Counted from the stretch's first letter, positions 10,131 through 31,752 are shown. The stretch: 31,752 nucleotides of DNA from Myxococcota bacterium (GCA_049322255.1 JBMORE010000035.1:1-31752); one strand, 5' to 3'. Notes: a model not told the origin generated them from the sequence alone. Made by a program: numbers and translations.

Positions 10131-10309
10131 GGCGCCTCCTTGGGGGTGTGACCATCGGCGCTGCAGGATGGCGACCACCCGCGCGCCCTCACCTTTCGGG
10201 CATTTCGACGCCGGCATGCCCCAAGATGGAGCAGACCGCGCCACCTTGGAGCAGGTGGGGAGCAGGTCGACTTGACGCGTAAAACCCCGCCGGGCATGAG
10301 CTAGAGGTC

Positions 10310-11467: not shown

Positions 11468-11805
11468 ACCAGACGCCTTCCAAAGGGTTCGAGGTGAGCG
11501 AGAGCGCGGTCGGCCGGCTGCGCGGCCTGCTTTCCGCCAAACCGGCGACCGCCGGCCTGCGCATCTTGGTGAAGGGCGGCGGGTGCTCGGGGCTGACCTA
11601 CCACATGGAGCTCGCCGACGAGCCCAAGCCCAAGGACAAGGTCTTCGAGCGCGACGGGGTGCGGGTGTTCATCGACGCGAAGAGCTTCCTCTACCTCGCG
11701 GGCACCACTCTCACCTGGGAAGAGAGCTTCATGTCTTCGGCGTTTCGATTGCACAACCCGAACGCGAAGACCTCCTGCGGCTGCGGCGAGAGCTTCTCGG
11801 TTTGA
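11464..11805 (+). CDS. iscA: Iron-sulfur cluster insertion protein, IscA/ErpA (HesB) family.
   Basis: C-terminal CGCGESF motif plus an internal GGGCSG. Its ATG overlaps the iscS TGA (ATGA). Confidence 0.85.
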
Positions 11806-13915: not shown

Positions 13916-13939
13916 ACGCAACTTCTACCACGCGTAGAC

Positions 13940-16900: not shown

Positions 16901-17278
16901 GGCTTCGCCATCGAACCCGTCGGAGCCGACCAGAACGTCGGCAAAGCCGTCACCGTTCACGTCTCCCACACCTGCGACCGCCCAGCCAAACCGGGAGCCC
17001 GTCTGGTCCGTCGGGTCTGCCGTCCACGCAGGAACGGTCGCCAACCCGGTGGCGCCTCCGAGAAAAAGGTACGCACGCCCTTCGTCGGTGCGCCCGGCAC
17101 CCGAATCGTCCCAAGAGGGAGCGCCGACCACCAGGTCAGCGTAGCCATCGCCGTTGACATCGCCCGCGCTGGCGGAGCTACCGAAGTTCGCGGTGCTCTG
17201 GTCGGTCGGGTCGGCCGTCCATGACTCAGTTGCCCTGAGCCCCGCAAGGCTGGGAGAGCCGCTCCAGGTCAGCGCCAA
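13940..17278 (-). CDS. Very large FG-GAP (integrin-alpha-like) repeat protein with a Cys-rich module and a MYXO-CTERM-type C-terminal sorting tail.
   Basis: About 15 tandem ~60-aa repeats (...FG.SVAGAGDVNGDGYADVLVGA...EGRAYLFLG...). The C-terminus GCGCEGGVHLLGVSWWVLCFVAWRRRGRQSRG has the GC-motif, a TM helix and an Arg cluster characteristic of MYXO-CTERM. The start is uncertain (see findings). Confidence 0.8.
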   Translation of the reverse strand: MALTWSGSPSLAGLRATESWTADPTDQSTANFGSSASAGDVNGDGYADLVVGAPSWDDSGAGRTDEGRAYLFLGGATGLATVPAWTADPTDQTGSRFGWAVAGVGDVNGDGFADVLVGSDGFDGEAADEGRAYLFLGSAAGLEAAPSWVADPTDLQGAFFGFSVSGAGDLNGDEYADVVVGASGWSGPGALTNQGKVYVYLGGPGGLASSPSRELTAPDPQPDAWFGASVSGAGDINGDGFGDVVVGAYLWDDLATARTNEGRVYLFQGGMSGLSLAAAWTADSSDQAFALFGYSVAGAGDVNADGYADVLVGAAGWDGPGSFGNEGRAYLFLGSQAGLSNSPVWFDDPTDQFSARYGSSVAGVGDVNGDGYSDVLVGAPSWDSAVFASEGRAHLYLGSASGLRSALTWTADPADQVDAWFGVSVAGAGDVNGDGFGDVVVGASEWNGSQPDEGRAYVYLGFAEGLTPTNFWTVAPTNQAGAAFGAAVASAGDVNGDGFGDVLIGAKDWNGQASDEGRVYLFLGGATGLATSPAWTADPTDESSAELGNSLSAAGDVNGDGYGDVVIGAYRADNQAANEGRAYVYWGGPTATGLSLMPAWVLDPTDQAGSFFGDSVAGAGDVNGDGFADVLVSADEWSGEAFEEGRGYLFLGGPTGLATTPAWVLDPTDQAGAWFSFPLAGAGDVNGDGLADALLGAFRWDGAQPDEGRAYIFLGNAGGLELVGTPVDPTDQAGAEFGRAVAAAGDVNGDGRGDLLIGARAFDGTELNEGGAYLYWGGDAGVTLATSLPHPAPEVDAGFGAAVAGGVDFNGDGFADVAIGAPRGSGSVAGEGAIYAYAGSAGPLAGARFDPVDQQGANFGAAVASAGDVNADGFGDLLVGAPGWDGSSNAEGRAYVFFGGDGAPGAARGLAQLRDDGVTRIGLGASAGPDVTLMGRVGQESPLGGMLRLEVEVKNVGVPFDGRGTVQSLAFTAGAVARVLIANLSPGAKHWRARVIYPVRTGFGRWVPFGGNSEAETDFRVLCPAGMTTCANACVDLGSDSNHCGQCGAACAAGALCVKGACAQLPAEETVPGDPTHYRVGCGCEGGVHLLGVSWWVLCFVAWRRRGRQSRG
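14300..17100 (-). repeat. Intragenic tandem repeats (~180 bp units) encoding the FG-GAP blades.
   Basis: A recurring GDVNGDG(Y/F)(A/G)DV motif about every 60 aa in the translated protein. Confidence 0.6.
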
Positions 17279-17316
17279 GAGCGCGGCCAGCGCCCAGCGG
17301 TGTCGCCCCGACCTAC

Positions 17317-17400
17317 TCAGAAGGCCCGCCCCTGACCGCCGTCGACAGGAAGGGTGGGGCCGGTGACGAGCGCCCGTTGGGATTCGAGCTCGAGATTCAT
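17317..17400 (-). pseudogene. Relic 3' fragment of a short-chain dehydrogenase/reductase (SDR) gene.
   Basis: The minus-strand translation of 17400..17317 is MNLELESQRALVTGPTLPVDGGQGRAF*. ..(V/I)TG.TL.VDGG.. is the signature C-terminal motif of the SDR family. An in-frame TAG lies 8 codons upstream, so only the tail of the gene survives. Confidence 0.45.
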
Positions 17401-17456
17401 CTGGGCAGTGGTGACGGCACTCTAGCAGCCGGCTCGACCCATGGCAGAATGCCCGC

Positions 17457-18140
17457 GTGCCGGCCCTTCGAGAGCAACGCGCCTACGCGCGCGTGGCCTT
17501 TCCCTGCCAGGTCGTGCTCTGGGTCGGCAACGTCAGCCACGACGTCGTGGCCCGAGACTTGAGCCGGGGGGGCGCCTTCCTCTACTGCCCGCTCCACGCA
17601 GCAGAGCTGGGGGAGCGCGTCGTCGCTCGGCTTCACGACCCCTGCTCGGGTACCGCCTTCGGGCTACCAGGGAAAGTGGTGCGCGTCGACACCGAAGCCG
17701 GTCCGCACAACGGCGGGCAGCACGGGCTGGCCATACAATGGCTCACCCAGCTGATGAGCGAAGAAGACGTCTCCCAGCTGGACAGGCTGCTGGAGTGTCT
17801 GTTGGCCCAGGAGGGCGGCGCGCGGCGTGCCCATGCGCGACTGTCGGTGCGCCTGGCCGTCGTCTATCGAACCGACGCGGAGACGAGCGCGGTCTTGCGG
17901 GACATCAGCCGCGGAGGCTGTTCCATCGAGGTGGATTCCGCGCTGCCCAAAGACACCCGGGTCGAGGTCCGGGTGACGGCGCCGCCCGCGCTGGGCGTGA
18001 CCCTCACCGGAAGGATACGGTACTGCCGCGCTTTGAATGACGGGAGGTGGCAAGCCGGGGTGAAGCTCGACGAGCTGCCCCTCCAGGTCCAACAAACCAT
18101 CGCCACACTTTTGAAAAAGCTCGTGGGGACTCCTGGTTGA
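17457..18140 (+). CDS. Tandem PilZ-domain protein (predicted c-di-GMP receptor).
   Basis: Two copies of the PilZ signature: RxxxR followed by DxSxGG (REQRAYAR ... DLSRGGAF; RRAHARL ... DISRGGCSI). GTG start. No other domains. Confidence 0.8.
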   Translation: MPALREQRAYARVAFPCQVVLWVGNVSHDVVARDLSRGGAFLYCPLHAAELGERVVARLHDPCSGTAFGLPGKVVRVDTEAGPHNGGQHGLAIQWLTQLMSEEDVSQLDRLLECLLAQEGGARRAHARLSVRLAVVYRTDAETSAVLRDISRGGCSIEVDSALPKDTRVEVRVTAPPALGVTLTGRIRYCRALNDGRWQAGVKLDELPLQVQQTIATLLKKLVGTPG

Positions 18141-18171: not shown

Positions 18172-20091
18172 GTGTCAATGTTCCTGATGACGTCCTCCCT
18201 CCTTCGAACCGCTCTTTGCATCGCTCTGGTGCTGCCCGCCACCGCCGCCGCGCAGCCTGTTCTTTTGGAGCTCACCTTCGATGACGGCCCGGACGGCTCG
18301 GGCCCAGCGGAGGGACGCGCCGACCTCAACAACCTCGAGGGGAGATCGCCGCTGAGCGCGGTGCTGCGCGGGGCGGCGCACCGGAGCAGAATCGACGAGG
18401 GTCGCTACGGGCGAGCGGCTGTCTTCGGGGGTGGCGCGGACCACATCGAGCTGGTCAGCTCCGCTCCCCTCTCGGCGCCCTACTTGAACCTACTGATGTG
18501 GCTGCGGCCGGACGCGGCGGAAGGACATCTCTTGGGCCAGGCAGGCAGCTGGAGCATCGGTCTGTCCGCGGGGGAGCTGGTGTTCAACGTCGTCGGTGGG
18601 GACGCGGGGGTGACGATGATTCCTTTCGGGGTGTCTGTCCCGATGGATGGAGCGTTCCATCACCTCGAGGTGCAAATCGACCCTGCCGGCCAGCAAGCCT
18701 CGGCGCTGCTCGGCTTCAACCCTCAAGACCGACGCACGGTCGCCCTCGCGTCACTGCCTCCCCAGTCGACACAACCGCTTCGAATCGGCGTCGACTATCG
18801 CGGACGCATCGATGAGCTCCTCCTGTCGAGGCAGCCCGCCGCGCCGGCTGAAACCGCGTTCAATCGCGACCCGCAAGCGTGCGCCTCCGGGGTGGTCTGC
18901 CGCGAGGACGTCATCCAGCTCCTTCCGGTCCCCGTCGACGCCACCTCGGGGCGCTATACCTGGCCAGTCCCCGTGCGCCTCAAGACCGGATACGACCCGG
19001 CCCAGTGCACACCGTCCACCCCGTGCCCGCTCCTCGTCACCATCAGCGGCGGTTTTACCTGCGCCGACGACTACGACGGGCCGGGCGCTTTTGGCACCTT
19101 CGCACGCGCAGGAGCGGTGGTGGTCACCATCGACCCCTATTGCGAGGCAGATGGTTTTTACGCCCCCATCTGGGAGCCGGCGCAGTACATCGCCGTGAAG
19201 AACTGGGTGCTCGCGTCGAGCCCTTTGCGCGATCGAATCACTCCCGGTGACTACTTCGCGTCGGGCTGCAGTCACGGAGCCGGCACCACGCTCGCCTGGG
19301 CGCTCAAGGAAACAGACCACCCCGCGAGGACTTTCTCGCGGAGCCCGAGCGTGGAGGTTCACTGCGCCTACCACGGCGTCGAGATGTGCACTGAGTACAA
19401 GACCGCCATTGACCAAGTCATCGCTTCGTACCTTGGCCAGAGCACGGTCGCTCCTCATGACGACTCGAACCCGGCGGTTCAGACGTTTTGGGGGTTGAAC
19501 GCCATCGACTACCCGTCTCTGGTAAACACCCGCGAGGTGGCAATCTCCTGGGGTGCAGACCTCACGCCCAGCACTCCCATCTGCAGCGCCAACGGAACGG
19601 CGCAGTGCTTCGAAGAAGGCGCGGGAACTGCGCCGGGAGCGCGCGCCTTTCGTGACCGCTGGCGCTCGCTCGAAGACCCCAACCGACCGACCGGCTATTT
19701 CGTCGAAGACCACGAGAGCGACTGCCGTCATTGCGCATCCCCCAACGGGCAGGTCTTCGCTTGTGGCGCATGCTTTCTCCTCCGCGGCCGTGCGGGAATG
19801 CAGTCGGCCTGTCCAAGCTGCCTCCAGCTGAGCGAGGGCGCGGCGTCCACCTGCGTTGATCCGTTCGTCCAAGACGCGGGGACGGCAGATGCGGGGCACG
19901 ACGACGCAGGAATTGCCGACGCCGGCACTTCTGCCGCGGCAGATGCCGACGCAGGAGTGCCCGACGAGGACACCCCCCGGCCCGGTTGTGGTTGCCAAGC
20001 ATCGGGAGCCGCATCGGCGGGGACGCTGGCGTTCTTGCTCCTGACGCTCCTTGCGATGGCCGTCGCGTTGCGCACCCAAAATCGCCTCTGA
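18172..20091 (+). CDS. Secreted protein with a possible N-terminal lectin/LamG-like domain, a Cys-rich region and a MYXO-CTERM-type C-terminal sorting tail.
   Basis: Signal peptide MSMFLMTSSLLRTALCIALVLPATAAA|QP. The C-terminus PGCGCQASGAASAGTLAFLLLTLLAMAVALRTQNRL has GCGC, a TM helix and a basic end. The low-complexity D/A-rich linker before the tail is typical of such proteins. Confidence 0.7.
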   Translation: MSMFLMTSSLLRTALCIALVLPATAAAQPVLLELTFDDGPDGSGPAEGRADLNNLEGRSPLSAVLRGAAHRSRIDEGRYGRAAVFGGGADHIELVSSAPLSAPYLNLLMWLRPDAAEGHLLGQAGSWSIGLSAGELVFNVVGGDAGVTMIPFGVSVPMDGAFHHLEVQIDPAGQQASALLGFNPQDRRTVALASLPPQSTQPLRIGVDYRGRIDELLLSRQPAAPAETAFNRDPQACASGVVCREDVIQLLPVPVDATSGRYTWPVPVRLKTGYDPAQCTPSTPCPLLVTISGGFTCADDYDGPGAFGTFARAGAVVVTIDPYCEADGFYAPIWEPAQYIAVKNWVLASSPLRDRITPGDYFASGCSHGAGTTLAWALKETDHPARTFSRSPSVEVHCAYHGVEMCTEYKTAIDQVIASYLGQSTVAPHDDSNPAVQTFWGLNAIDYPSLVNTREVAISWGADLTPSTPICSANGTAQCFEEGAGTAPGARAFRDRWRSLEDPNRPTGYFVEDHESDCRHCASPNGQVFACGACFLLRGRAGMQSACPSCLQLSEGAASTCVDPFVQDAGTADAGHDDAGIADAGTSAAADADAGVPDEDTPRPGCGCQASGAASAGTLAFLLLTLLAMAVALRTQNRL

Positions 20092-20117
20092 CGACAGGGT
20101 GAGGCGCTCCCTCAGGG

Positions 20118-20600
20118 TTGGACTCGCGGCGTCGCTCGCCCTGCACGGCATCGCTTGGCGTGGTTGTACCTTTTCGAGCTGCCCGCTTCGCCGCCGCCGG
20201 CGCCTCCCGAAGCCCGCCGTTGACGGTGGAAATCGTCTCAGCGCTGGGTACCGGCCGGAGCGGGCTTCTTCGACGAACCCACCGGCGAAGTGCTGGTGGT
20301 GAACCTGACCGACCCGAAATTCTCCTGCACGGTGAAGCTTTTGCGCGTGTACTGAAAGTCCCCCACTGGGAGGGCTGCCCCCTTCGTTGGGGCAGCAATG
20401 AGCTTCACTTTGTCTTGCCCGAGGCATACCAGCCCCAGAACCGGCGCCAGCGGTTCCTGGGCGAGCTGCCGCATCAGTGGGCCGAGATCTATGGGCACTG
20501 CACCTGCGGCGCCTGGGTGGAACGTTGGATCCAGTTCACCGATGGGCTCGCCGTCGAAGTACGTCTGGAGTCGCCGCGCGAACCTGGCAAAGAGGGGTGA
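20118..20600 (+). CDS. Questionable small ORF (160 aa). Only the C-terminal half looks protein-like. It competes with an antisense GTG-initiated 86-aa ORF at 20238..20498.
   Basis: The N-terminal half is an Arg-rich, noise-like translation and the plausible half contains no in-frame ATG. Third-codon-position GC content is about 75% in both competing frames. Confidence 0.2.
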   Translation: MDSRRRSPCTASLGVVVPFRAARFAAAGASRSPPLTVEIVSALGTGRSGLLRRTHRRSAGGEPDRPEILLHGEAFARVLKVPHWEGCPLRWGSNELHFVLPEAYQPQNRRQRFLGELPHQWAEIYGHCTCGAWVERWIQFTDGLAVEVRLESPREPGKEG

Positions 20601-20603
20601 GCT

Positions 20604-23600
20604 TCAATCTGCGCGGAAGAGCTCTTCCACGTCCGCCTCCGAGAGCGTCTTGCCCAGGTCGCTGTCTGCACCGAGCACGCCCTTGGCCAGCTCGCGCTTG
20701 CGCTGCTGCAGAGCGAGAATCTTCTCTTCCACCGTGCCCTTGGTGATGAGCTTGTAGCTGATCACCGCCTTGGTCTGTCCGATGCGGTGGGTGCGGTCGG
20801 TGGCCTGGTCCTCCACCGCCGGGTTCCACCAGGGGTCGTAGTGAATGACGTAGTCCGCCGCGGTGAGGTTCAAGCCGGTGCCTCCGGCTTTCAGGCTGAT
20901 GAAGAACACCGGCGGGCCCGAGGGGTCGTTGAACGCGTCGACCCGCGCCATGCGGTCTTTGGTGCGGCCGTCCAGATAGAGGTAGCCGACCTTCGCCTCG
21001 TCCGCCTGCGTCTTGAGCAGCTCGAGCATCTCGGTGAACTGGCTGAACACCAGGGCGCGGTGCCCTTCGCCCACCAGCTCGTTCACCAGCGCGCCGAAGC
21101 GCTCCAGCTTCGCCGACGGCGGCAAGAGCGTGCCCGGGGGCAACTTGAGCAGCCGGGGGTCGCAGCACACCTGGCGCAGCCGCATCAGCGCGGCGAGGAT
21201 GGACACCCGCGACCGCCCGAAGCCCACTTTGTCGATCGACTCGTAGACCTTGCGGCGGCTCTCCTCCAGCACCTCGCGGTAGAGCGCCGCCTGGCCGCCG
21301 TCCATCTCGCACCAGGCCACCGTCTCGGTCTTGGGAGGCAGGTCTTTTGCCACCTCGGTCTTGAGCCGCCGCAAGACGAACGGGTGAATGCGCCTTCGCA
21401 GCCGCTCGCGCACCGCCAGGTCGCCCACCACCTGAATGGGCTGCTCGTAGCGATCGTGGAAGGTGTCTGCCCCGCCCAAGAAGCCGGGCATCAAGAAGTC
21501 GAAGATGCTCCACAGCTCGGAGAGCCGGTTTTCCAGCGGGGTGCCGGTGAGCGCCAGCCGCTGCTCGCACGGTATCGCCTTGCACGCCTGCGCGGTGGCC
21601 GAGTCGGCGTTCTTGATGTTCTGCGCCTCGTCGAGCACCACGTAGCGAAAACCCACCTGGGAGAGCTCCTGCACGTCGCGCCGCACCAACGCGTAGGAGG
21701 TGAGCACCAGGTCGGCGTCCTTGAGCTGGTCGCTGCGCTCGCGCCGGCCTTGCCCGTGCCACACCACCGCGCGCAGCTTTGGGGTGAAGCGCTCGACCTC
21801 GCGTTCCCAGTTGACCAGCACCGAGGTGGGCGCCACCACCAGCGACGCTTTCTGCCCCTCCTCGTTCTTCACTTTCTGCAAAAGCGCCAGCGCCTGCACC
21901 GTCTTCCCCAGCCCCATGTCGTCGGCGAGGATGCCGGAGAGCCCGTGGCGGTGAAGGAACCACAGCCAGGCCAGCCCGGCCTCCTGGTAGTGGCGCAAGG
22001 TGGCAGTCAAGTGAGCCGGCGGCTTCACCGAAGGAATGCCGTCAATCTCCCGTAAGGCAGCGATGGCCTTTCTCGCCTTGGCCTCGATCTCCGCCTCTCC
22101 CAAGGAGGCGAGCAAATCGAGCGCGGGCGCCTGGTAGAGCGGCAGCCGGGTGTGCTTCACCCCGGCGAGCGCCCCCGCCTCCTCGAGCAGATCGGCCGCG
22201 CGGCGGATTTCGTCCACGTCGGCCTCGGCGAAGCTGCCGTCCTCGAGCGGCACGTAGCGGCGCCCCGAGTCGAGCCACATGCGCACCGCCCCCAAGTCGA
22301 CCGATTGGTCATCGGAGACGAAGTCGGCGTCGAGCGAAAACCAATTCACCCCGCTCATTCCCACCCGGATACGCGGCTTCATTCTCGGTCGAACGCGCAC
22401 GGTGGGGCTCTTGACGCCGAAGAGCTCCCACTCGGGCGGCAGCTCCTTTCGGCCCTTCGTCCAAAAGTCGATCGCCGCGTCGCCGACGACCTCGTATACC
22501 TGCCCGGTGGCATCGTGGCGGAACCCCAGCTCCAAGAGCCGTTTGGCGGCCGCGCGCTCCAGCTCTTGCTGCCGGCGGTAGAGCTTCTTGCCTCCCTCGC
22601 CTGCTCCCGTGGCGTACCCCAGCGGACCTGTGCCTGGAGACACCGGCACCGTCGAGTGACCGTAGCGCGCAGCGAGCACCGCCTTGATGCGTTCGGCTCC
22701 ACCTTCCAGCGTCAGCAAAAAACACGGGGCCACGTCCTCCTCGACGTCGAGCCCGTCGGCCTTCAAGGACATCTGAAAGCGCGGCAGGTGCGCGGCGAAG
22801 AAGGTGAGCACCCGGTCGACCTGCGAGGCGGGAAAGGACATCGAAGGCTCGAGCACCCATTTGCGCGCCAGCCGGGGAGGCAGCTCCGGCTCGACCCGGA
22901 ACAGCGTCTGTCCGTGAATGACCCAGGTGCGGCGGCCCGCCAAGAGCAACGCGTCTTTGAGCCCCACCGAAAGGCCTTCGGGCAAGAGCAGGTCGATGTG
23001 GGCCTGGGCGCCGTCGGGTCGGGACTGGAGGTGGACCTGCGGCCGCGCCGGCTCTGTGGAGAATCGAAGCGGAGTGCCACGGTAAACGACACGCCGGTGC
23101 CGGAGCAGCTCGACCAGCTCGGCCAAATCGTCGTCGGAGAGCACGATGCGCCCATCGAACCGGCTTTCGTAGCGGGCGAGCTCGAGAAACAGCCGCTCGT
23201 CGGCCAGCGCGATGCGCGCGCCCGAAGAGAGGAGCCGCTTGACGTGCACCGGCCCCTTGGCCTGCGCATCGGAGCGACGCACGTCCAGCACCCAGTGACG
23301 CGCGCCTCCCCCGGGGCGCACCGCGGTGAGGCGGTAGAAGAACTCGAGGTCGGGCAAGGACGACAACCCCAGCCAGCTCTCCAGCTTGGCCAGCGCGGGC
23401 AACGCCACCGCCTCGGAGGCTGGGCCACCTCCGTCCGCCTGCCGCACCCGGGCGAGATAAACCAGGGCGGTCGCCACCACGTGCTTGCAGTGGGGGCCGT
23501 ACTTGTTCCAGGCCTCGCACGTGCACCGCGACCGCACGGTTCCGTCCCCGGGCGGCGCCAGCTCGACCTCGTAGCGCTCGCCCGTCGAGCCGGTCACCTG

Positions 23601-23810
23601 AGCGGTGACCCTGCCGGCGTCTTTCGACACCAGCGCCACCCGCCGCCCTTCGGCGTAGTCTCGCCCCTTCTTGAAGGTGACGGGAGCCACCTCGGCCTTG
23701 AGGGCACGAAACCACTGGCCTTGGTCGACGGGCGTCGTTTCTGTCGAAGAAGTAGCCACAGATGAGGAAAACGCCCCGCGGCGGCGGGGGAATCCGCACC
23801 CATAGCACAA
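20604..23810 (-). CDS. SNF2-family helicase with an N-terminal SWIM zinc finger (RapA/YwqA-like).
   Basis: SWIM motif CTCEAWNKYGPHCKHV. SNF2_N motifs ILADDMGLGKT and DEAQNIKN. Helicase_C motifs (..GGTGLNLTAADYVIHYDPWWNP..). The ATG at 23810 has a GAGG 8 nt upstream, and only 3 nt separate it from the upstream gene's stop. Confidence 0.85.
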   Translation of the reverse strand: MCYGCGFPRRRGAFSSSVATSSTETTPVDQGQWFRALKAEVAPVTFKKGRDYAEGRRVALVSKDAGRVTAQVTGSTGERYEVELAPPGDGTVRSRCTCEAWNKYGPHCKHVVATALVYLARVRQADGGGPASEAVALPALAKLESWLGLSSLPDLEFFYRLTAVRPGGGARHWVLDVRRSDAQAKGPVHVKRLLSSGARIALADERLFLELARYESRFDGRIVLSDDDLAELVELLRHRRVVYRGTPLRFSTEPARPQVHLQSRPDGAQAHIDLLLPEGLSVGLKDALLLAGRRTWVIHGQTLFRVEPELPPRLARKWVLEPSMSFPASQVDRVLTFFAAHLPRFQMSLKADGLDVEEDVAPCFLLTLEGGAERIKAVLAARYGHSTVPVSPGTGPLGYATGAGEGGKKLYRRQQELERAAAKRLLELGFRHDATGQVYEVVGDAAIDFWTKGRKELPPEWELFGVKSPTVRVRPRMKPRIRVGMSGVNWFSLDADFVSDDQSVDLGAVRMWLDSGRRYVPLEDGSFAEADVDEIRRAADLLEEAGALAGVKHTRLPLYQAPALDLLASLGEAEIEAKARKAIAALREIDGIPSVKPPAHLTATLRHYQEAGLAWLWFLHRHGLSGILADDMGLGKTVQALALLQKVKNEEGQKASLVVAPTSVLVNWEREVERFTPKLRAVVWHGQGRRERSDQLKDADLVLTSYALVRRDVQELSQVGFRYVVLDEAQNIKNADSATAQACKAIPCEQRLALTGTPLENRLSELWSIFDFLMPGFLGGADTFHDRYEQPIQVVGDLAVRERLRRRIHPFVLRRLKTEVAKDLPPKTETVAWCEMDGGQAALYREVLEESRRKVYESIDKVGFGRSRVSILAALMRLRQVCCDPRLLKLPPGTLLPPSAKLERFGALVNELVGEGHRALVFSQFTEMLELLKTQADEAKVGYLYLDGRTKDRMARVDAFNDPSGPPVFFISLKAGGTGLNLTAADYVIHYDPWWNPAVEDQATDRTHRIGQTKAVISYKLITKGTVEEKILALQQRKRELAKGVLGADSDLGKTLSEADVEELFRAD

Positions 23811-23813
23811 CCC

Positions 23814-24803
23814 TCATCCCAGCGCGCGTTCGAAGGCGCGGCGCAGGAAAACCGGCAGCACCCGCCGGCGCCAGGCCGGGTCGACGTTGATGTTGGTCAG
23901 CGGGTGGCACTGCTTGTAGGCAAGTTGCCCCAGCTCGGCGATGACGGCGTCACCGAGCACCCGCCCACGAAATGCTTCGAGGCGCTTGAAAAGGTGAGGT
24001 CGCGCTCCCAGCGCCGAAACCGCCACCCGCACCCATTCGATGACCCCGCTCTCGTCGAGCTGGGCCGCCACCGCCACGCACAGCGCGGGGTAGTCGATGG
24101 CCGCCCGAATGCGCAGCTTCTCGTAGCCCATCACCACCCTCGCCGCGGGCAGCGGCACGCGCGCCTCCACCACCAGCTCGTCCGGCCGCATCGCGAGATT
24201 CACGATGCCGTCGGGAACGTAAAGCTCGGAAACGGGCACCTCCCGCACGCCATTGGCCCCCGCCAGCCGCACCGTGGCGCCGAGGGTCATCAGCACCGGC
24301 GCGGTGTCATTGGAGGCGGCGGCGACGCACTTTTGCCCGCCCTTCACCACGTGACAGACGGTGCCGTCCTTCTTGAGGCAGAAACCCAGCGCTTTGCGCC
24401 AGAAGTAGGTCTGGTTGTAGTAGACGCACCGGGTGTCGAGGCAGAGATTGCCACCCAGGGTGCCCATCTCGCGCAGCTGGGGCCCGGCGATGGCTTTCGC
24501 CGCACGTGCCAGGCTGGGGAGCTTGGCCCGCACCGTCTCGTTCCGGCCTAGGTCGGCGATGGTGAGCATCGCTCCCAGCCGTAAGGCGCCTCCCTCTTCT
24601 TTCACATAGGAAAGATCGCGAATGCCTTTCAGCCCCACCACGTGCGGAGGGGTGAAGAGCCGATGCTTCATGTTGGGGACGAGGTCGGTGCCGCCGGCGA
24701 GGACCTTCACCTGCCCTTGGTGCTGGACGAGCAAGCGCACGGCCTCGTCCACCGAGGTGGGAGCGTGGTACTGGAACGGCGGCAGGGTGAGCATCGGCGG
24801 CAA
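23814..24803 (-). CDS. FAD-binding subunit of a molybdenum hydroxylase of the xanthine dehydrogenase/CO dehydrogenase family (CoxM/XdhB-like).
   Basis: FAD-binding pattern ...VLAGGTDLVPNMK...GTLGGNLC.... The CO-dehydrogenase-flavoprotein C-terminal region is present. Length 329 aa. Confidence 0.8.
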   Translation of the reverse strand: MPPMLTLPPFQYHAPTSVDEAVRLLVQHQGQVKVLAGGTDLVPNMKHRLFTPPHVVGLKGIRDLSYVKEEGGALRLGAMLTIADLGRNETVRAKLPSLARAAKAIAGPQLREMGTLGGNLCLDTRCVYYNQTYFWRKALGFCLKKDGTVCHVVKGGQKCVAAASNDTAPVLMTLGATVRLAGANGVREVPVSELYVPDGIVNLAMRPDELVVEARVPLPAARVVMGYEKLRIRAAIDYPALCVAVAAQLDESGVIEWVRVAVSALGARPHLFKRLEAFRGRVLGDAVIAELGQLAYKQCHPLTNINVDPAWRRRVLPVFLRRAFERALG

Positions 24804-24914
24804 GCACTATCGACCCCGCCGCCGCGGGTCAACGGCAGCGCTCGCCAGGCCAGGGTAGTTCCAAGATTTGGCAAAACGGTCCGCACCAGCGGCCGACCGT
24901 ACGAGGCCTCGACT

Positions 24915-25541
24915 GTGTCCCGCTTCTCGGCGTTTCTCGAGCGACAGAACAAGGTGGCGATCGCCAGCGCCGCCACCCTCGTGCACGGGCTGCTCTACCT
25001 CTTGCCCAACCACCTGCGCCTGGTGTCCGCCTCCGAGCTCCCCCTCACCACGCTCGATCGCTGGATTCCGTTCGTGCCCCAGACGGCGTGGATCTACTGG
25101 AGCGACTACTTCCTCATCTTCGTCGCCTTCAGCCTTTGCCGCTCGCCCGGCTCCACCGCCCGCTTCGTGTACGCGCTGTTCACCGTCATCGCCATCGGCA
25201 CCGGGGTGCACTGGCTGTGGCCCGTCGAGTTTCCGCGTCACCTCTACCCGCTCCCCCTCACGGTGGATGCGCTCACCGCGCCAGCGCTGTCCCTCTTCCG
25301 CCAGCTGGATTCGCCGGGAAGCTGCGTGCCCAGCCTTCACGTCGCGGCGTCGTTCATCGCCGCCTTCGCCGCCAGGAGCGAGAACGCCCGCGCGGGTCTG
25401 GCGCTCACGGCGTGGGCCGCGCTCATCGCCCTCTCCACCCTCACCCTCAAGCAGCACTACGTCATCGACGTGGTGACCGGGGTGGCGCTGGCGGCGGTGG
25501 TGCGCTGGGGGTTCTACCGCCCGCGTCAGGGCACTCGGTAG
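24915..25541 (+). CDS. PAP2-superfamily (acid phosphatase / lipid phosphatase-like) integral membrane protein.
   Basis: GTG at 24915 with a GAGG 7 nt upstream. PAP2 signature pieces PSLH and KQHYVIDVVTG. About 6 hydrophobic helices. The ORF-track extension back to 24642 is noise. Confidence 0.6.
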   Translation: MSRFSAFLERQNKVAIASAATLVHGLLYLLPNHLRLVSASELPLTTLDRWIPFVPQTAWIYWSDYFLIFVAFSLCRSPGSTARFVYALFTVIAIGTGVHWLWPVEFPRHLYPLPLTVDALTAPALSLFRQLDSPGSCVPSLHVAASFIAAFAARSENARAGLALTAWAALIALSTLTLKQHYVIDVVTGVALAAVVRWGFYRPRQGTR

Positions 25542-27421
25542 GTCAGGTCGACCTGCGGGCGCGTGGGCGGACTGGGGTTCCCCTCGATGGGATCGAAGCG
25601 CGCCCAACGATCGACGCTCGGAGGCGTGGTGCCTTCGGCCCCCATCCTGAGCCGCATGCCCACCCGCCCTTTCCCCTGAGCCACCGCCGAGCTGAGCCAG
25701 GCGGAGACGTCGGCGGAGCGCTCACCGGCAGCATCGCTGCTGCTGACCAGCACTGCTGAACAAGTCGAGCAGAAGGTCGCGGCGTTGTAGTCGGTGGCGT
25801 CGAGGATTCCGTAGTCGACCCCCTCAACGTACACGTTGCCGTAGGCCGCGTGGGTGCCGGAGTTGCAGTTGTCCAGGTAGATCCGCAACGTCGCAGTCAG
25901 CGAGGTCGCCATCAACGCGTTGGCGGGAAGATCGACGGCGAAGAAGCCACGCAGCGGCAGGGCTGTGGGGAGGGTGCCCTTGATCCAACCCACCGACGTC
26001 CAGCTGTTCGTCTGAAACAAGCCGTCCCCACGCACGTAGCCGTCCTCTGAGAAGGGAATGACGACGCTGTACAGCCCCCGCACCTTGAACTGGTAGGTGG
26101 CGGTCGCCGCGAGGGTGTTGCCCGCCAGGTCGCGCGCCGCCGTCGACACTTGCCACTGCACCACTTGGTTGTTCGGCCACGCCGTGGGAGTGAAGGTGAG
26201 CACGGTGCCCGGGGTGTCCCAGGAGAAGGAGCCCGCGTTACCCGGCGCACCGGGCGACGTCACTTGCAGCGCCGCCTGAGTAGCGGCCTTGTCCATCGGC
26301 TCGGAGAACGTCACGGTGATGGCCTGGTTCGGCTCGCGGTTGTTGGTGCTGTTGGCAGGCGTCACCGAGATGATGGTCGGAGAAGCGGTGTCTTTGGTGG
26401 TGAAGGACCAGCTGAAGGGCTGCGCCAGCGCGTTACCCGAGACGTCCTCCGCTCCCGTGCCGACCGACAGCGTATAGGTCGTGCTCCCGGCGAACGGTGT
26501 GGCGTGCTGGCAGGAGAGGGTCGAGCCGCTGCCGTCGAAGGCCAGGGTGCAGCCACCGCTCACCGGGGGAGTGATGGTGAACGCCGCGCGGGTCTTCAGC
26601 GGCTCCATTCCCTCGGAGAAAGAAATCGACGGCGCCAAGGCTGGGTCGACGTCCTGCGCTCCATTCAACGGAATGGTCGCCACCACCGTGGGGGCAGTGG
26701 TGTCGGGAGTGCTGGCGGTGGTGAAGGTGACGCTCGTCTGCCCCGCAAGGCCGTTCCCTGCGAGGTCGGCGCCGGCGATGGTGAGCACGTAGGTGGTGAG
26801 GGGCTGAAACGGCGAGGGCGGCGCGCTGAACGATACGGTCGTCTTTTCGGTCGACCAGGAGGGCGCGCCGAAATCGAAGGTGGGTGCCGCGCTGACCGAG
26901 ACCGTGGCGGTGTCCATCGGCTCGGAGAAGGTGATCGACAGCCGGGCTCCGATGGGAATCATCGTCGCCGCATTGGCGGGCGTGGTGGCGGAAATGACCG
27001 GCGGCACCACGTCGACCACCGCCTCGGTGGTGAAGCGCACCTCCACCGTGTCCATCTCCACACCCTGTGCCGAGCGTCCGCTGATGGTCAACACGTACTG
27101 CCGGCTGTTCTCCAGCGGATCGGCCAGCGCCAGGGCAAGCTGGGTGTCCTCCTCCGACCAAGCCGCGGTCGCTCGCGGCACCTGCGGGTTGAAGGTCAGC
27201 TGCACCGAGGCGGTTTCCATCGGCAGGGAGAAGACGACCTCCACGGCCGTTCGGGTGGAGACGTTCACCGCCCCCGGCACGGGCACGGTCGAGACCACCG
27301 TGGGAGGCGCCAGCGCTCCAGCACAACCGCGGCGCTCGAGGCACTCCTGCTTCGCTCGATCGAAGTCCAGACAGGCGCTGGCACAGACGACGGCGGCGAG
27401 CCCCAATCCAAAATGACGCAT
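25526..27421 (-). CDS. Lipoprotein with about four bacterial Ig-like (SbsA/Big_5-type) domains and a ~200-aa C-terminal domain of unknown function.
   Basis: ATG at 27421 overlaps the upstream gene's stop (TGATG). Lipobox MRHFGLGLAAVVCASAC. A repeated ~90-aa unit (...TVVATIPLNGAQDV...FSEPMD...A....V) recurs four times. Confidence 0.65.
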   Translation of the reverse strand: MRHFGLGLAAVVCASACLDFDRAKQECLERRGCAGALAPPTVVSTVPVPGAVNVSTRTAVEVVFSLPMETASVQLTFNPQVPRATAAWSEEDTQLALALADPLENSRQYVLTISGRSAQGVEMDTVEVRFTTEAVVDVVPPVISATTPANAATMIPIGARLSITFSEPMDTATVSVSAAPTFDFGAPSWSTEKTTVSFSAPPSPFQPLTTYVLTIAGADLAGNGLAGQTSVTFTTASTPDTTAPTVVATIPLNGAQDVDPALAPSISFSEGMEPLKTRAAFTITPPVSGGCTLAFDGSGSTLSCQHATPFAGSTTYTLSVGTGAEDVSGNALAQPFSWSFTTKDTASPTIISVTPANSTNNREPNQAITVTFSEPMDKAATQAALQVTSPGAPGNAGSFSWDTPGTVLTFTPTAWPNNQVVQWQVSTAARDLAGNTLAATATYQFKVRGLYSVVIPFSEDGYVRGDGLFQTNSWTSVGWIKGTLPTALPLRGFFAVDLPANALMATSLTATLRIYLDNCNSGTHAAYGNVYVEGVDYGILDATDYNAATFCSTCSAVLVSSSDAAGERSADVSAWLSSAVAQGKGRVGMRLRMGAEGTTPPSVDRWARFDPIEGNPSPPTRPQVDLTYRVP

Positions 27422-28248
27422 CACCAAACCCCCACGAAGCCGAGGCCCGCACCGGCTGGAGACCACGCGACGCCCGAGGTCACCTCTTCATCTCCCCCGA
27501 ACCACCACAGGGCCCCGGCGGCCAAAAGGCAGGCGGCGCCCACCCCTACCCCGGCCCAACCCACCGTCTGCTGCGTCTTACCCGAAGCCACCAACTGCTC
27601 GCTCTGGGCCGGAGTCAACGCGCGGTCGGGCGTCGCCGACGTCAGCTTGCCGTAGCTGCCTTGGGCCATCGAAAGCCCGGCGCCCCCGGTGACCAGACCC
27701 GCCATGCCCACACCGAAGGGCACCCAGCTCAGCCGCTTGGTGGTGCCCCAGCGGGTGGTGACGCGGGCGGTGTCGGGAATCAACGCTCGCCCGAGCTTTT
27801 GCGAAAGTTGGGCGGCGAGCTGGACCGCCACGTCACGAAAGCTGCGCACGAGGCCGTCTTCGCTGGGGCTGGTGGCGCTCGCGGCGGCCAGCGGCTTGCC
27901 GGTACCCGCCTCGAGCACCCGCACCTCCAGCCGGTAGCTTTCGCTGGTCTTGGCGACCTGGCCCACCATCAACCCCTGCACGCCAAGGTCTCCGGTCACC
28001 TGGGCGCGGCAGACCTCGTCGGGACAGCCCAAAAGCTGCTGCTGACGCTCGAAGCCCAAAAGCGCGGCGAGGTCTTCGCTGGTGACCACCCGCACCCCCT
28101 GGTAGTTCAGCTGCTGGGCGAGGGTGCCGGTGTAGAAGCCGGTCAGCTTGGGCTCGAGGTTCACCATCGAGAGCCCGGGGGCCGCGATCCGAATGGGCTC
28201 GGCGGCGGCAAGCAGCGCGGCCACACAGCCAACAGCAATCGAGATCAT
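27421..28248 (-). CDS. Secreted or periplasmic protein with a C-terminal TM anchor; function unknown. Its N-terminal domain shows loose resemblance to the CsgG/LpoB/TolB-N-type alpha/beta fold.
   Basis: Signal peptide MISIAVGCVAALLAAA|EP. Hydrophobic helix TVGWAGVGVGAACLLAAGALWWF near the C-terminus. No catalytic motifs. Confidence 0.5.
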   Translation of the reverse strand: MISIAVGCVAALLAAAEPIRIAAPGLSMVNLEPKLTGFYTGTLAQQLNYQGVRVVTSEDLAALLGFERQQQLLGCPDEVCRAQVTGDLGVQGLMVGQVAKTSESYRLEVRVLEAGTGKPLAAASATSPSEDGLVRSFRDVAVQLAAQLSQKLGRALIPDTARVTTRWGTTKRLSWVPFGVGMAGLVTGGAGLSMAQGSYGKLTSATPDRALTPAQSEQLVASGKTQQTVGWAGVGVGAACLLAAGALWWFGGDEEVTSGVAWSPAGAGLGFVGVW

Positions 28249-28255
28249 GGCGAGC

Positions 28256-28858
28256 TCAGAGCACCTCGAACACGATTTTCTGCGTTCCGGTCTTGGCTGA
28301 GTCGAAGAAGCCGCGGACTGTTATTGAGCCTCGCTCTGCTCGCGTGAGTGCCGAGGAGAGCCGATAATAGATCTTCTCCATCGACGTGCCCTTCGTGGCG
28401 TCGAGCTTCACGTGTCGTTTGCCATAGGAGAAGTCGATGGTGCCGTCCTTCTCGGCTGCCTTGCCCTTGAAGGTCACCGTGAGATCGCGCGAGATGTGGT
28501 CACCAAAGTCAGCGTCTTTGCGGAGCTTGGGTGGGGACAGTGCCACGCTCACGCCAGGAATGGTACGACGCACCGACAGCTTCGCGGTCGCCAGCTCAAG
28601 CGAGGATTGAATCCACCGCTTGGGCTGAGCTTTGACGGTCATGCCGTCCTCCGCATCGTACGGATTCGGAATGAACTCGTCCTCGTTCTTGAACTTGCTT
28701 CCGGGCAATGCGGCGAGCTTCTTGAGCGCCCTGATTTCCTTAGGGGAGTACTTGGTGTCCTTCTCGATGACCTCGAGAATCTCACGGGCGTCGTCGGGGC
28801 GAATCCTCCCACCGGCGATCTTGGACGCGACCAACTTATTCAAAGGACTGACGGGCAT
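28256..28858 (-). CDS. Hypothetical cytoplasmic Lys-rich protein (200 aa) in a compositionally atypical (~57% GC) gene.
   Basis: ATG at 28858 with a strong GAGGAGGGA ribosome-binding site. No signal peptide or TM helix. Contains AT-rich codons (AAA, AAT, ATT, TATTAT) that are rare in the rest of the window. Overlaps the last 7 codons of coxL. Confidence 0.55.
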   Translation of the reverse strand: MPVSPLNKLVASKIAGGRIRPDDAREILEVIEKDTKYSPKEIRALKKLAALPGSKFKNEDEFIPNPYDAEDGMTVKAQPKRWIQSSLELATAKLSVRRTIPGVSVALSPPKLRKDADFGDHISRDLTVTFKGKAAEKDGTIDFSYGKRHVKLDATKGTSMEKIYYRLSSALTRAERGSITVRGFFDSAKTGTQKIVFEVL

Positions 28859-31175
28859 GCGGGCCTCCCTCCTCGAGCCGGCGCACCATACCAGAGCGCT
28901 CCTGCGCGCGAAGCAGTTCGAGCACCTTGGCCGGGTGGAAAGGCAGCTCGGTGAGCCGCACCCCGACGGCGTCATAGATGGCATTGGCGATGGCGGGGAT
29001 GACCGGGTGCAGCGGGCCCTCGCCGGCCTCCTTTGCGCCGTGGGGACCATGGGGGTCCACCGACTCGACGATGAAGGCCTCGATGTCCGGGGTGTCGAGC
29101 GAGGTGGGAATGCGGTAGTCGAGCAGCGAGGGCCCCTGGTGCAAGCCGCTGGGGTGGTAGGTCATCTCCTCCATCGCCGCCTCGGCCCAGCCCATATACA
29201 CCGAGCCTTCGATCTGCCCCTCGACCAAGGTGGGGTTGAGCGCGCGGCCGCAGTCGTGCGCCGCCCACACCTTCTCCACCCGCCACATGCCGGTCTGGCG
29301 ATCGACCTCCACCTCCACCACGTGGGCGGTGAAGCTGTAGGCGGGAGAGGCGCCGATGGTGCCGCCACGGTAGTCGGCTCCCAGCTTCTGCGTGCGGTAG
29401 GAGCCGGTGGCGCCCAGGGTGCCGAACTTCGCCTCCGCCAGCTGCACCGCTTCACGGAAGGAGAGCTTTTGCCCCTCGGGGCCGAAGAGCGTTCCCAAGC
29501 GCCCGTCGACCGCGGAGGGCCCCACGCCCCACTTCTCGGCGACCGCGGCCGACAACTGCGCCCACAGCTTCTGCCCCGCCTCCACGCACGCCAGCCCGAC
29601 CATGAAGGTGCCGCGGCTGGAGTAGGCCCCGAGGTCCACCGGGGTCAAGTCGGTGTCGGAGACCACCACGTGGCAGTCGCGCGGATCGCACCCGAGCTCC
29701 TCGGCGATGAGAAACGCCGGCAGCGAGTTGGTGCCCTGGCCGATGTCCGAAGCGCCGGAGAAGATGGTCACCTTCCCGCTGCGGTCGAGCTTCACCTGAA
29801 TGCCCGACTGGGGCATCTCGTTGGGGTAGATGGGGTAGGCGGTACCGGAGATGTACATCGAACCGGCGACGCCCAACCCCCGGCCCGGCGGCAGCTTGCC
29901 CTTGCGCGTTTTCCACCCGCTCGCTTCCTCCACCTTCTCCAGCGCCTTCAAAAACCCGTTGGAGGTGATGGTCTGCCCGTTGATGGTTTTCACCTGTTCG
30001 CCGATGAAGTTCCGCTTGCGCACTTCGATGGGGTCGAGGCCGAGCTTCTCCGCCGCCACGTCCAGCGCGACCTCGAAGGCAAAGCGCGGTTGCACGCTGC
30101 CGTGGCCACGCTTGGGGCCGCAGGGGGGCTTGTTGGTGAACACCCGGGTGGCATCGAAGCGGTAGCTGCCGAAGCGGTAGGGGCCGGTGAGCAGCTGCCC
30201 CGAGTAGTACGCGGTGACCAGCCCGAAGGAGGAGTACGCCCCGCCGTCGATGAGAATCTTCGAGTCCACCGCGTCGATCTGCCCGTCCTTCGACAGCCCG
30301 ACCCGGAAGCGCATCTTCATCGGGTGGCGGCCGCGGTGGGCGTAGAACACCTCCTCGCGGGTGTAGAGGCACTTCACCGGTCGGCCGGTCTTCATCGCCA
30401 GCTTGGCGACGATGAACTCCAGCGCGAAGGGGTCGGACTTGCCGCCGAAGGCGCCACCGAGGAAGGGCTGAATGACGCGAATGCGCGCCGGGTCGAGCCC
30501 GAGCACCCTGGAGAGCTCGCGGTGTACGTAGTGGGGAATCTGAGTCGAGCTCCATACGGTGAGGTTTCCCTCGGCGTCGTACTGGGCCAGCGCGCAGTGC
30601 GGCTCGATGGGGGTATGTGTCGAGCCGGCATAGAAAAAAGTCTCGTCGGCCACCGCGGCGGCGCCACCGAGCGCCTGATCCACCGGGCCGAACTCGAGCC
30701 GCACGTGCTTGGAGACATTGCCCTGCTTGGCGTCCTCGTGGATTTTCACCTGGTCCTCGGCCAACGTCGCTTCCGGCTCGACCAGCGCCGGGAGCACCTC
30801 CCACTCGACGTCGATGAGCTCGAGGGCCTCCTCGGCAGCGAGCTCGTCGACGGCGGCGACCGCGGCCACCTCGTCACCGATGAAGCGGGCCTTCTCCGTC
30901 GCCAGCGCCTGCTCGTCGGGCGTCCAGGGAATAACTCCGTAGCGCGCAGGCAGCTCCTTGCCCTCGAGCACCGCCACCACCCCGGGGTGCGACAGGCAGC
31001 GTGAAAAGTCGATGCGCCGGATGTACGCGTGGGCATGGGGGCTGCGGAGAATTTTGCAGTGCAGCATCCGCGGCAGCGCAAGGTCGTCGGTGTACTGCGC
31101 CTGCCCGGTGGCCTTCTTGAGCCCGTCGAGCTTGCGCAGCCGCCGGCCGAGAACCGCGTAGGCCTTTTCGCTCAC
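28836..31175 (-). CDS. Molybdopterin-binding large subunit of a xanthine dehydrogenase / CO dehydrogenase family enzyme (CoxL/XdhA-like; not the form-I CO dehydrogenase signature).
   Basis: The N-terminus VSEKAYAVLGRRLRKLDGLKKATGQAQYTDD is typical of the family. GGAFGGK motif. The GTG start overlaps the coxS stop (GTGA). No VAYRCSFR motif. Ends in TAA. Confidence 0.85.
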   Translation of the reverse strand: MSEKAYAVLGRRLRKLDGLKKATGQAQYTDDLALPRMLHCKILRSPHAHAYIRRIDFSRCLSHPGVVAVLEGKELPARYGVIPWTPDEQALATEKARFIGDEVAAVAAVDELAAEEALELIDVEWEVLPALVEPEATLAEDQVKIHEDAKQGNVSKHVRLEFGPVDQALGGAAAVADETFFYAGSTHTPIEPHCALAQYDAEGNLTVWSSTQIPHYVHRELSRVLGLDPARIRVIQPFLGGAFGGKSDPFALEFIVAKLAMKTGRPVKCLYTREEVFYAHRGRHPMKMRFRVGLSKDGQIDAVDSKILIDGGAYSSFGLVTAYYSGQLLTGPYRFGSYRFDATRVFTNKPPCGPKRGHGSVQPRFAFEVALDVAAEKLGLDPIEVRKRNFIGEQVKTINGQTITSNGFLKALEKVEEASGWKTRKGKLPPGRGLGVAGSMYISGTAYPIYPNEMPQSGIQVKLDRSGKVTIFSGASDIGQGTNSLPAFLIAEELGCDPRDCHVVVSDTDLTPVDLGAYSSRGTFMVGLACVEAGQKLWAQLSAAVAEKWGVGPSAVDGRLGTLFGPEGQKLSFREAVQLAEAKFGTLGATGSYRTQKLGADYRGGTIGASPAYSFTAHVVEVEVDRQTGMWRVEKVWAAHDCGRALNPTLVEGQIEGSVYMGWAEAAMEEMTYHPSGLHQGPSLLDYRIPTSLDTPDIEAFIVESVDPHGPHGAKEAGEGPLHPVIPAIANAIYDAVGVRLTELPFHPAKVLELLRAQERSGMVRRLEEGGPHARQSFE

Positions 31176-31696
31176 GAAGCGCGCTCCGTGGTGGGCCGCT
31201 CGTCGCGCTCTTCCACCGTGCGCTGGCCCGAGGCGACCTCTACCGCGTCGAGAATCTGCTTGTAGCCGGTGCAACGGCACAGGTTGCCCGAGAGCGCTTC
31301 TTGGATTTCCTCGCGCGCCGGCTTGGGGTTTTTCTCCAAGAGCGCCGCCGCCGAGAGCATCATCCCCGGCTGGCAAAAGCCGCACTGGAGCGCGCCGCAG
31401 ACATCGAAGGCGTCTTGCACTGGGTGCACCTTCGCCCCCTGGGCCAGACCCTCGATGGTGGTGATGCGCCGGCCCACATGCTCCACCGCCAGGCACAAGC
31501 AGGAAAGCACCGGTCGCCCGTCGATCAGCACCGTGCAGGCGCCGCAGTCGCCCTTGTCGCAGCCCTGCTTGGAGCCGGTGAGGCCCAAGGTGTAGCGCAA
31601 GGTCTCAAGCAGGGTGGCGCGCGGCTCGACCGCCACCTGGTGGCGATCGCCGTTCACCTCCAAGGAGATGAGCACCTTGTCCGGGCGGCCGAGCAC
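31172..31696 (-). CDS. [2Fe-2S]-binding small subunit of the molybdenum hydroxylase (CoxS/XdhC-like).
   Basis: Plant-type ferredoxin cysteines CDKGDCGAC...C, and the second cluster motif CGFCQPG...CRCTGY. GTG start at 31696. Confidence 0.85.
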   Translation of the reverse strand: MLGRPDKVLISLEVNGDRHQVAVEPRATLLETLRYTLGLTGSKQGCDKGDCGACTVLIDGRPVLSCLCLAVEHVGRRITTIEGLAQGAKVHPVQDAFDVCGALQCGFCQPGMMLSAAALLEKNPKPAREEIQEALSGNLCRCTGYKQILDAVEVASGQRTVEERDERPTTERAS

Positions 31697-31752
31697 GCGT
31701 CACGGATATCCCCAGGCCCCACGGGTGGTCAATCGCAGCCGCCTACTGGCCC

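Follow-up and report, generated by a model that had tools for sequence, protein, structure and literature searches.

The CoxSML and CutSML members of the xanthine oxidase family have a three-subunit architecture with molybdenum (Mo), iron-sulfur (FeS) and flavin adenine dinucleotide (FAD) cofactors. 4-Hydroxybenzoyl-CoA reductase (here 4-HBCR; HcrCAB in Thauera aromatica, PDB 1RM6/1SB3; HbaBCD in Rhodopseudomonas palustris) has an extra cluster, which according to Unciuleac et al. (2004), in the form cited in PMC2997495, allows electrons to come in from ferredoxin and move in the direction of Mo. Here we analyze a related locus on a 31,752-bp stretch of DNA (the window), a complete contig from a metagenome-assembled genome (MAG) of an uncultured myxobacterium (Myxococcota). 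It encodes a small subunit with two [2Fe-2S] clusters (S), a molybdopterin-binding large subunit (L) and an FAD subunit with a [4Fe-4S] insert (M). We consider it likely that the locus is a derived split of a single 4-HBCR-like S-L-M operon by unrelated genes, in which M has remained intact and cognate and is probably transcribed separately.

The minus-strand order is S-L, A, B and C, followed by a PAP2 gene on the plus strand, then M and then a SWIM-SNF2 helicase gene. S (31172-31696, minus; 174 aa; Fer2 and Fer2_2 domains) and L (28836-31175, minus; 779 aa; Ald_Xan_dh_C and MoCoBD_1/2) both have GTG starts, and the tetranucleotide GTGA is common to the S stop and the L start. The ATG of A, which encodes a Lys-rich protein (28256-28858, minus; 200 aa), sits 23 nt within the tail of L, with GGAGG ahead of it. 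A 7-nt gap leads to B, an envelope protein with a weak DUF3280-like domain (27421-28248, minus; 275 aa), whose stop overlaps the ATG of C as TGATG. C is a probable lipoprotein with four Big_5 Ig-like domains (25526-27421, minus; 631 aa). The gene for a PAP2-superfamily membrane phosphatase (24915-25541, plus; 208 aa; PAP2 domain) is convergent with C, which it overlaps by 16 nt, and points away from M (23814-24794, minus; 326 aa; FAD_binding_5 and CO_deh_flav_C). M starts 4,041 nt beyond the L stop, and the helicase gene (20604 to about 23759, minus) served as our synteny anchor. An earlier note on this DNA had described the coupling of S and L, the 7-nt gap, the TGATG overlap, the opposite PAP2 gene and an FAD gene about 4 kb beyond L, and had guessed the domain content from the sequence; all of these structural statements were confirmed, the domains by Pfam (Fer2/Fer2_2, MoCoBD, FAD_binding_5, four Big_5 and PAP2).

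All Pfam domains of S, L and M exceed their gathering cut-offs, as expected of the three-subunit xanthine oxidase-family architecture, which calls for two [2Fe-2S] domains in the small subunit, a/b-hammerhead and MoCoBD_1/2 domains in the large one, and FAD_binding_5 with CO_deh_flav_C in the medium one. Among NCBIfam models, L is matched best by the 4-HBCR alpha model (TIGR03194), at 855.5 bits with a cut-off of 994.55, and M scores 310.6 bits with the beta model (TIGR03195; cut-off 404.55) and 162 with the next. The top models for S are glyceraldehyde dehydrogenase gamma and 4-HBCR gamma (TIGR03193; 180 bits, cut-off 257.8), each under its cut-off. Comparison with solved structures gives the same picture: L matches 1rm6_A at 647 bits (next, 291), and M aligns end to end with 1rm6_B, including an insert of about 40 residues that is missing from other flavoprotein subunits. 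Within this insert, Cys126, Cys142, Cys150 and Cys159 of M (329-aa numbering) align with Cys122, Cys138, Cys146 and Cys155 of HcrB (1rm6_B), with a spacing of 16/8/9 in both, and all four are invariant in an alignment of 17 M sequences that counts the window M as one row. S contains all the Cys needed for its two clusters. On these scores and residues, the enzyme belongs to the 4-HBCR-like clade of the xanthine oxidase family.

Models of other family members fit less well. Scores were below cut-off for XdhA (534 vs 780), XdhB (156 vs 310), XdhC (178 vs 217), PaoA (162 vs 322) and PaoC (272 vs 1180). CO dehydrogenase (CODH) was considered and ruled out: neither the form I active-site loop AYXCSFR nor the form II loop AYRGAGR is found in L, where the equivalent region reads PPCGPKRGHG, as in HcrA, and L scores 302 bits with TIGR02416 (cut-off 991) and 362 with NF040766 (cut-off 950). 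The "cox" label of the earlier note therefore does not hold. S, as read from the sequence, starts straight at its ferredoxin fold, with neither a twin-arginine (Tat) nor a Sec signal ahead of it, which would make the enzyme cytoplasmic.

Among the open reading frames (ORFs) scanned in the window, in which a stretch at about 3.9-5.4 kb is unannotated, we found no homologues of xdhC, coxDEFG or mocA, and no genes for 4-hydroxybenzoate-CoA ligase, benzoyl-CoA reductase or ferredoxin. In three close relatives, no aromatic-catabolism genes occur within 10 kb; the neighbours there are instead genes for NAD kinase, RarA and the SNF2 helicase. Because every subunit falls short of its equivalog cut-off and genes of aromatic catabolism are missing from the vicinity, we label the enzyme only as 4-HBCR-like; an annotation as "cox" or as 4-hydroxybenzoyl-CoA reductase would be an over-call.

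Related loci were gathered in three ways, by encoding-contig lookups, a genome scan and a metagenome scan, and eight window proteins were located in them by tblastn. The close relatives came from the contig lookups and the metagenome scan and comprise 34 loci with M at 64% identity or more, some of which are the same contig in two collections; their L is 79-82% identical to that of the window (MAFFT). In all 28 close loci with enough upstream sequence, L directly precedes M; fewer than 300 nt separate their tblastn matches, and 2-134 nt at the junctions that were read. The same SNF2 helicase follows M in 20 of the 34, those with enough downstream sequence, and tblastn found no homologues of A, B, C or PAP2 in any of the 34. 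In each of the three close-relative contigs for which flanking genes were listed (five loci), S, L and M sit next to one another, with NAD kinase before S in two of the contigs and a glyoxalase-family gene in the third. Since the close relatives have a contiguous S-L-M without A, B, C or PAP2, the comparison indicates that the split is derived, and it has been seen so far only in the window lineage. The interrupted order is thus not the ancestral state.

The earlier note had remarked on the absence of coxDEFG/xdhC maturation genes. They are indeed missing among the scanned ORFs, but this is not peculiar to the window, as no xdhC or cox accessory genes were found near S-L-M in the three close-relative contigs either; their absence beside the operon appears to be normal for the clade.

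The interval between M and the helicase gene is a hot spot of changing gene content in close relatives (loci L081-L085 and L092-L117), in which its genes differ from one relative to another and encode a carbamoyltransferase, a methyltransferase, a GDSL lipase, SlyX and hypothetical proteins. Two relatives carry short tandem repeats in their spacers: locus L085 has runs of the hexamers GTCGCC, GTCAAC and GTAGAC just after the M stop, and in locus L100 a unit of about 30 nt, CGCTCGCCTCGAGCGGAGCGAAGCGAAGTC, is present twice between L and M.

More distantly, the contiguity of S, L and M that the earlier note took as canonical breaks down. The relatives from the genome scan are, among the matches listed, all at 58% identity or less, and the distant set (M at 44-58% identity) gives 102 informative loci among the matches listed, most of them from Gemmatimonadota and Longimicrobiales, with others from Planctomycetota, Eisenbacteria and Acidobacteriota. 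L and M are contiguous in 46 of these; the gap is 0.3-2 kb in 29 and over 2 kb in six, and no L lies within at least 3 kb in 21, so that M stands apart from L in 56 of 102. In the 0.3-2 kb class, the majority of gaps measure about 1 kb. All nine of the ~1-kb gaps that were translated contain the same gene of about 330 aa, which in locus L012, the sole example scanned, matches the AmiA-like family PF07313. Separation of M from S-L is common in the clade, and the split in the window is therefore less surprising. Within this clade, gene order says little about which subunits cooperate.

Several further features of these loci were recorded. The ~1-kb gap occurs in Gemmatimonadota/Longimicrobiales (loci L003, L004, L011, L012, L014, L021, L075, L132, L150 and about 20 more), and other distant loci have a class I/II aminotransferase gene directly before M. 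An M of the 4-HBCR-beta type occurs with neither S nor L within 10 kb on either side in loci L008, L028, L030, L033, L125, L158, L162, L165 and others. Taken together, MAGs of soil Myxococcota, Gemmatimonadota, Planctomycetota and Acidobacteriota hold a large uncharacterised 4-HBCR-like clade, whose members keep the [4Fe-4S] flavoprotein and, in the loci examined, have no aromatic-catabolism neighbours.

The genes between L and M are separate units. A has no signal peptide, and its GC content of 0.58 and third-position GC content (GC3) of 0.77 compare with a GC3 of 0.85-0.93 in its neighbours. It gave no matches in a word-indexed search and has no Pfam model; an exhaustive search among 1.84 billion cluster representatives found 13 homologues. 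The two that were located lie in unrelated contexts, apart from B-C and from any molybdoenzyme. The structure predicted for A has a pLDDT (predicted local distance difference test) of 89.6, and comparison with the PDB gives no informative fold match. By these searches, A is an orphan-like member of a very rare family.

B has a signal-like N-terminal segment and two C-terminal hydrophobic segments. In three unrelated neighbourhoods its homologues (50-60% identity) each immediately precede a homologue of C (33-37%). These pairs, all in Myxococcota (locus L086, 10001-12831; L087, 9601-12485; L088, 10001-12795), are found beside genes for OmpA, PilZ and ABC transporters, beside those for multihaem cytochromes, or beside MJ0711-like and DTW genes, and occur without A and without PAP2. 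Because the pair recurs in three unrelated neighbourhoods, we regard B-C as a self-contained envelope pair that is not linked to molybdoenzymes. The GC3 of B, C and PAP2 is typical of the host, and PAP2 is a separate stand-alone gene. The earlier note proposed that a periplasmic or envelope module had been inserted into the operon. The insertion stands, given the 28 contiguous relatives, and so does the B-C pair, but A, B and C do not form one module; the idea holds for B-C alone.

The combination of B (about 275 aa) and C (about 630-680 aa, a Big_5 lipoprotein) with an overlapping stop and start is conserved in several Myxococcota. A reading of the inserted genes as a defence system was tried and rejected: PADLOC returned nothing for A, B, C or PAP2, and for the helicase only generic SNF2 models.

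Functional recruitment, in which A, B and C work with the enzyme by anchoring it to the envelope or coupling to it, would make S-L-A-B-C a novel system. The very tight packing, with the start of A lying in L behind GGAGG, the 7-nt gap and the 1-nt overlap, is what such a system would lead one to expect, and no terminator is predicted from S to C. However, the B-C pairs elsewhere never adjoin a molybdenum hydroxylase, A homologues occur apart from both B-C and the enzyme, and A, B and C are found in none of about 160 related S-L-M loci among the matches listed. None of the three proteins has a CxxCH haem-binding motif or matches a redox-cofactor Pfam family, and A has no Cys at all. The predicted locations also differ, the enzyme being cytoplasmic, as S has no Tat or Sec signal, and B and C belonging to the envelope. 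We therefore regard recruitment as very unlikely.

The intervening DNA raises the question of whether M still serves S-L. M keeps its ancestral downstream neighbour, the SNF2 helicase, and its ORF is intact, with every column that is invariant in the 17-sequence alignment kept. Its identity to relatives is 67-73% where that of L is 79-82%; pairs of relatives with L at 80-82% have M at 64-69%. The divergence of M relative to L is normal and gives no sign of relaxed constraint. Because the ancestral neighbour is kept, M falls in the same 4-HBCR-like clade as L and divergence is normal, M is best understood as the cognate partner of S-L and a syntenic orthologue. The same evidence speaks against the suggestion of the earlier note that S-L may use a different FAD partner. 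If S-L did rely on another flavoprotein encoded elsewhere, M would either be in decay or belong to a different enzyme. There is indeed a physical, and probably also a transcriptional, separation of M from S-L, and the 21 distant loci in which, among the matches listed, M has no L within at least 3 kb upstream give the idea some precedent. Against this stand the conserved helicase neighbour, the shared clade, the intact ORF with its four cluster Cys and invariant residues, and a divergence that is not raised; we judge it highly improbable that M is not the partner of S-L.

The separate transcription of M is suggested by a promoter-like site in the 120-nt divergent spacer between M and PAP2. The site (24804-24832, minus) consists of TTGACC, 16-17 nt, ATAGTG/TAGTGC and 9-10 nt to the ATG. 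It resembles a site before S (31707-31732, minus) with TTGACC, 16-17 nt, GATATC and 7-8 nt to the GTG, and S is preceded by a comparable site in 11 of 13 close relatives inspected (TTGACC or TTCAAC, then about 16 nt, a TATATT-like element, about 7 nt, GTG). A standard promoter scan gave no match close to either gene, as their -10 elements are weak and their spacing departs from the consensus; the sites were found by comparison with relatives. The pattern TTGACC-N16-18-ATA has two sites in the whole window, before S and before M, with 0.05 expected, and none of 100 shuffles gave two or more. The resemblance between the two promoter-like sites is suggestive. No Shine-Dalgarno sequence was found before S or before M; together with a -10 element only about 7 nt from the GTG, this suggests a leaderless or nearly leaderless operon mRNA in this group of Myxococcota. 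The conserved site upstream of S was seen in loci L092, L095, L097, L098, L110, L116 and L085.

On the other side of M, a terminator-like hairpin, CCCCGCCGCCGCGGGG, with a T-rich tail (23765-23789, minus) lies 25 nt past the M stop; this GC hairpin and T-tract lie in the 54-nt spacer between M and the helicase gene, and the hairpin was not present after M in relatives. Upstream, no gap from S to C exceeds 7 nt and no terminator is predicted there, so S-L-A-B-C is probably one transcript.

The course of events may be reconstructed as follows. Ancestrally, S, L and M formed one contiguous operon. Unrelated DNA of about 4 kb, namely A, the B-C pair and PAP2, now separates L from M, and the last ~20 codons of L would read into this new DNA. 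Beyond "...LPFHPGKVL.LLREK", the tail of L differs between relatives in both length and sequence, which places the breakpoint no more precisely than after about codon 757. A, B and C are probably co-transcribed with S-L, and PAP2 on the opposite strand would cut M off from the S-L transcript. M is probably transcribed alone, from a sigma-70-type promoter resembling that of S, and its transcript would end at the hairpin and T-tract. The enzyme would still assemble from S, L and M, with Mo-pterin in L, two [2Fe-2S] clusters in S, and FAD and a [4Fe-4S] cluster in M. By analogy with 4-HBCR, we infer that electrons pass from an external carrier to the [4Fe-4S] cluster, on to FAD and the two [2Fe-2S] clusters, and finally to Mo.

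Several points weigh against this reconstruction. None of the subunits reaches its 4-HBCR equivalog cut-off, so that the scores point to no particular substrate. The analysis covers one 31.7-kb contig, and a second copy of M or of S-L elsewhere in the genome is possible. The transcription units are predictions from the sequence; the -10 element before M is weak, and the promoter pattern was defined after both sites had been viewed, which makes its statistics optimistic. No transposase or tRNA was found at the borders of the rearrangement, and a repeat search over 23.5-29.2 kb gave no flanking direct repeats or target-site duplication, its sole yield being a 15-nt inverted repeat around M. Finally, the spacer between M and the helicase gene, 54 nt in the window, is variable in relatives at 0.4-6.4 kb (at least 375 nt). 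Because this spacer is so unusually short, more than one event would be needed, either an insertion and a deletion or inversions. The block may possibly have entered the M-SNF2 spacer first and later moved across M, although an insertion plus a deletion fits equally well.

Assembly error might also be suspected, with S-L wrongly joined to foreign DNA and that in turn to M-SNF2, as the source is a MAG and A has a lower GC content than its neighbours, but this is extremely unlikely because an independently assembled 9,543-bp Logan contig from SRR32167792 matches window positions 19732-29274 at 99.98% with an identical gene order over both junctions, which shows that the layout is real, and because both junctions lie between intact genes, the outer synteny S-L ... 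M-SNF2 is preserved and B, C and PAP2 have a host-typical GC3.

M is bracketed by a perfect 15-nt inverted repeat, CCCGCGGCGGCGGGG and CCCCGCCGCCGCGGG (23775-23789 and 24814-24828), with one copy 25 nt past the M stop and the other 20 nt ahead of the start. The upstream copy lies in the spacer of the M promoter-like site and the downstream copy in the hairpin with the T-tract; taken singly, either copy makes a short GC hairpin. The repeat may have arisen along with the terminator hairpin or be the trace of an inversion. Two inversions, one of M together with a block formerly located between M and SNF2 and then one of M alone between the repeats, would yield the present order, although this is speculation. 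That the repeats still allow M to flip, as an invertible cassette giving on/off control of the FAD subunit, is scarcely credible: the repeat is perfect, flanks M and is absent after M in relatives, but the window ORFs scanned with Pfam include no recombinase gene, both assemblies show a single orientation, a GC-rich triplet-like hairpin arises easily at 68% GC (1.8 matches expected with up to two mismatches), and the terminator stem explains the downstream copy well enough.

Overall, we think it very improbable that the insertion is other than neutral, whether through an A-B-C and S-L unit linking the enzyme to the envelope or through M acting as an invertible on/off cassette. What we describe is ordinary lineage-specific operon erosion and not a new system. 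As such, it provides a clean, datable case in which a displaced subunit gene has stayed under constraint and has apparently gained a promoter resembling that of the operon.

Elsewhere in the window, a class-V aminotransferase (cysteine desulfurase-like) gene is followed by one for an IscA-type FeS biogenesis protein (10283-11805, plus), 12 kb from the molybdoenzyme genes and with no link to them shown. Next to a subtilase gene (12056-13924) and a PilZ protein gene (17415-18140) lies a gene (13940-17482, minus) for a protein of 1,180 aa that combines 13 FG-GAP repeats with a Cys-rich, Stig1-like C-terminus.

The enzyme can be compared with several described members of the xanthine oxidase family. 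The Enterocloster urolithin C dehydroxylase acts by taking off a phenolic hydroxyl group and has been presented beside 4-HBCR as another phenol dehydroxylase (PMC12771579); we liken it to the window enzyme by this description only, and it comes from a Firmicute gut anaerobe and has a different gene context. E. coli PaoABC (PDB 5G5G) belongs to the same family, and the alignment of its FAD subunit with M runs as a single stretch over the insert region. PaoB carries a [4Fe-4S] cluster. However, the FeS subunit of PaoABC has a Tat signal, whereas S of the cytoplasmic window enzyme has none, and the Pao models score much weaker. CoxSML and CutSML have Pfam domains and a subunit architecture in common with the window enzyme, but CoxM, unlike M, has no [4Fe-4S] insert, the alignment with CutM breaks exactly at the insert, and the scanned window ORFs include no coxDEFG.

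The closest counterparts are HcrCAB and HbaBCD, enzymes defined by the ferredoxin-dependent reductive dehydroxylation of 4-hydroxybenzoyl-CoA, which give the best structure and hidden Markov model matches for L and M. In contrast to their setting in anaerobic aromatic catabolism, the window and its relatives have no aromatic-catabolism neighbours in the loci examined, and the hosts here are soil Myxococcota and similar lineages, probably aerobes. The set of subunits is the same as S, L and M, and the HcrB insert with its four [4Fe-4S] Cys is also present in M. The gene order S-L-M of the close relatives corresponds to gamma-alpha-beta, and that of hcrCAB is likewise gamma-alpha-beta; in the window, the gene for the beta subunit has been displaced by 4 kb.

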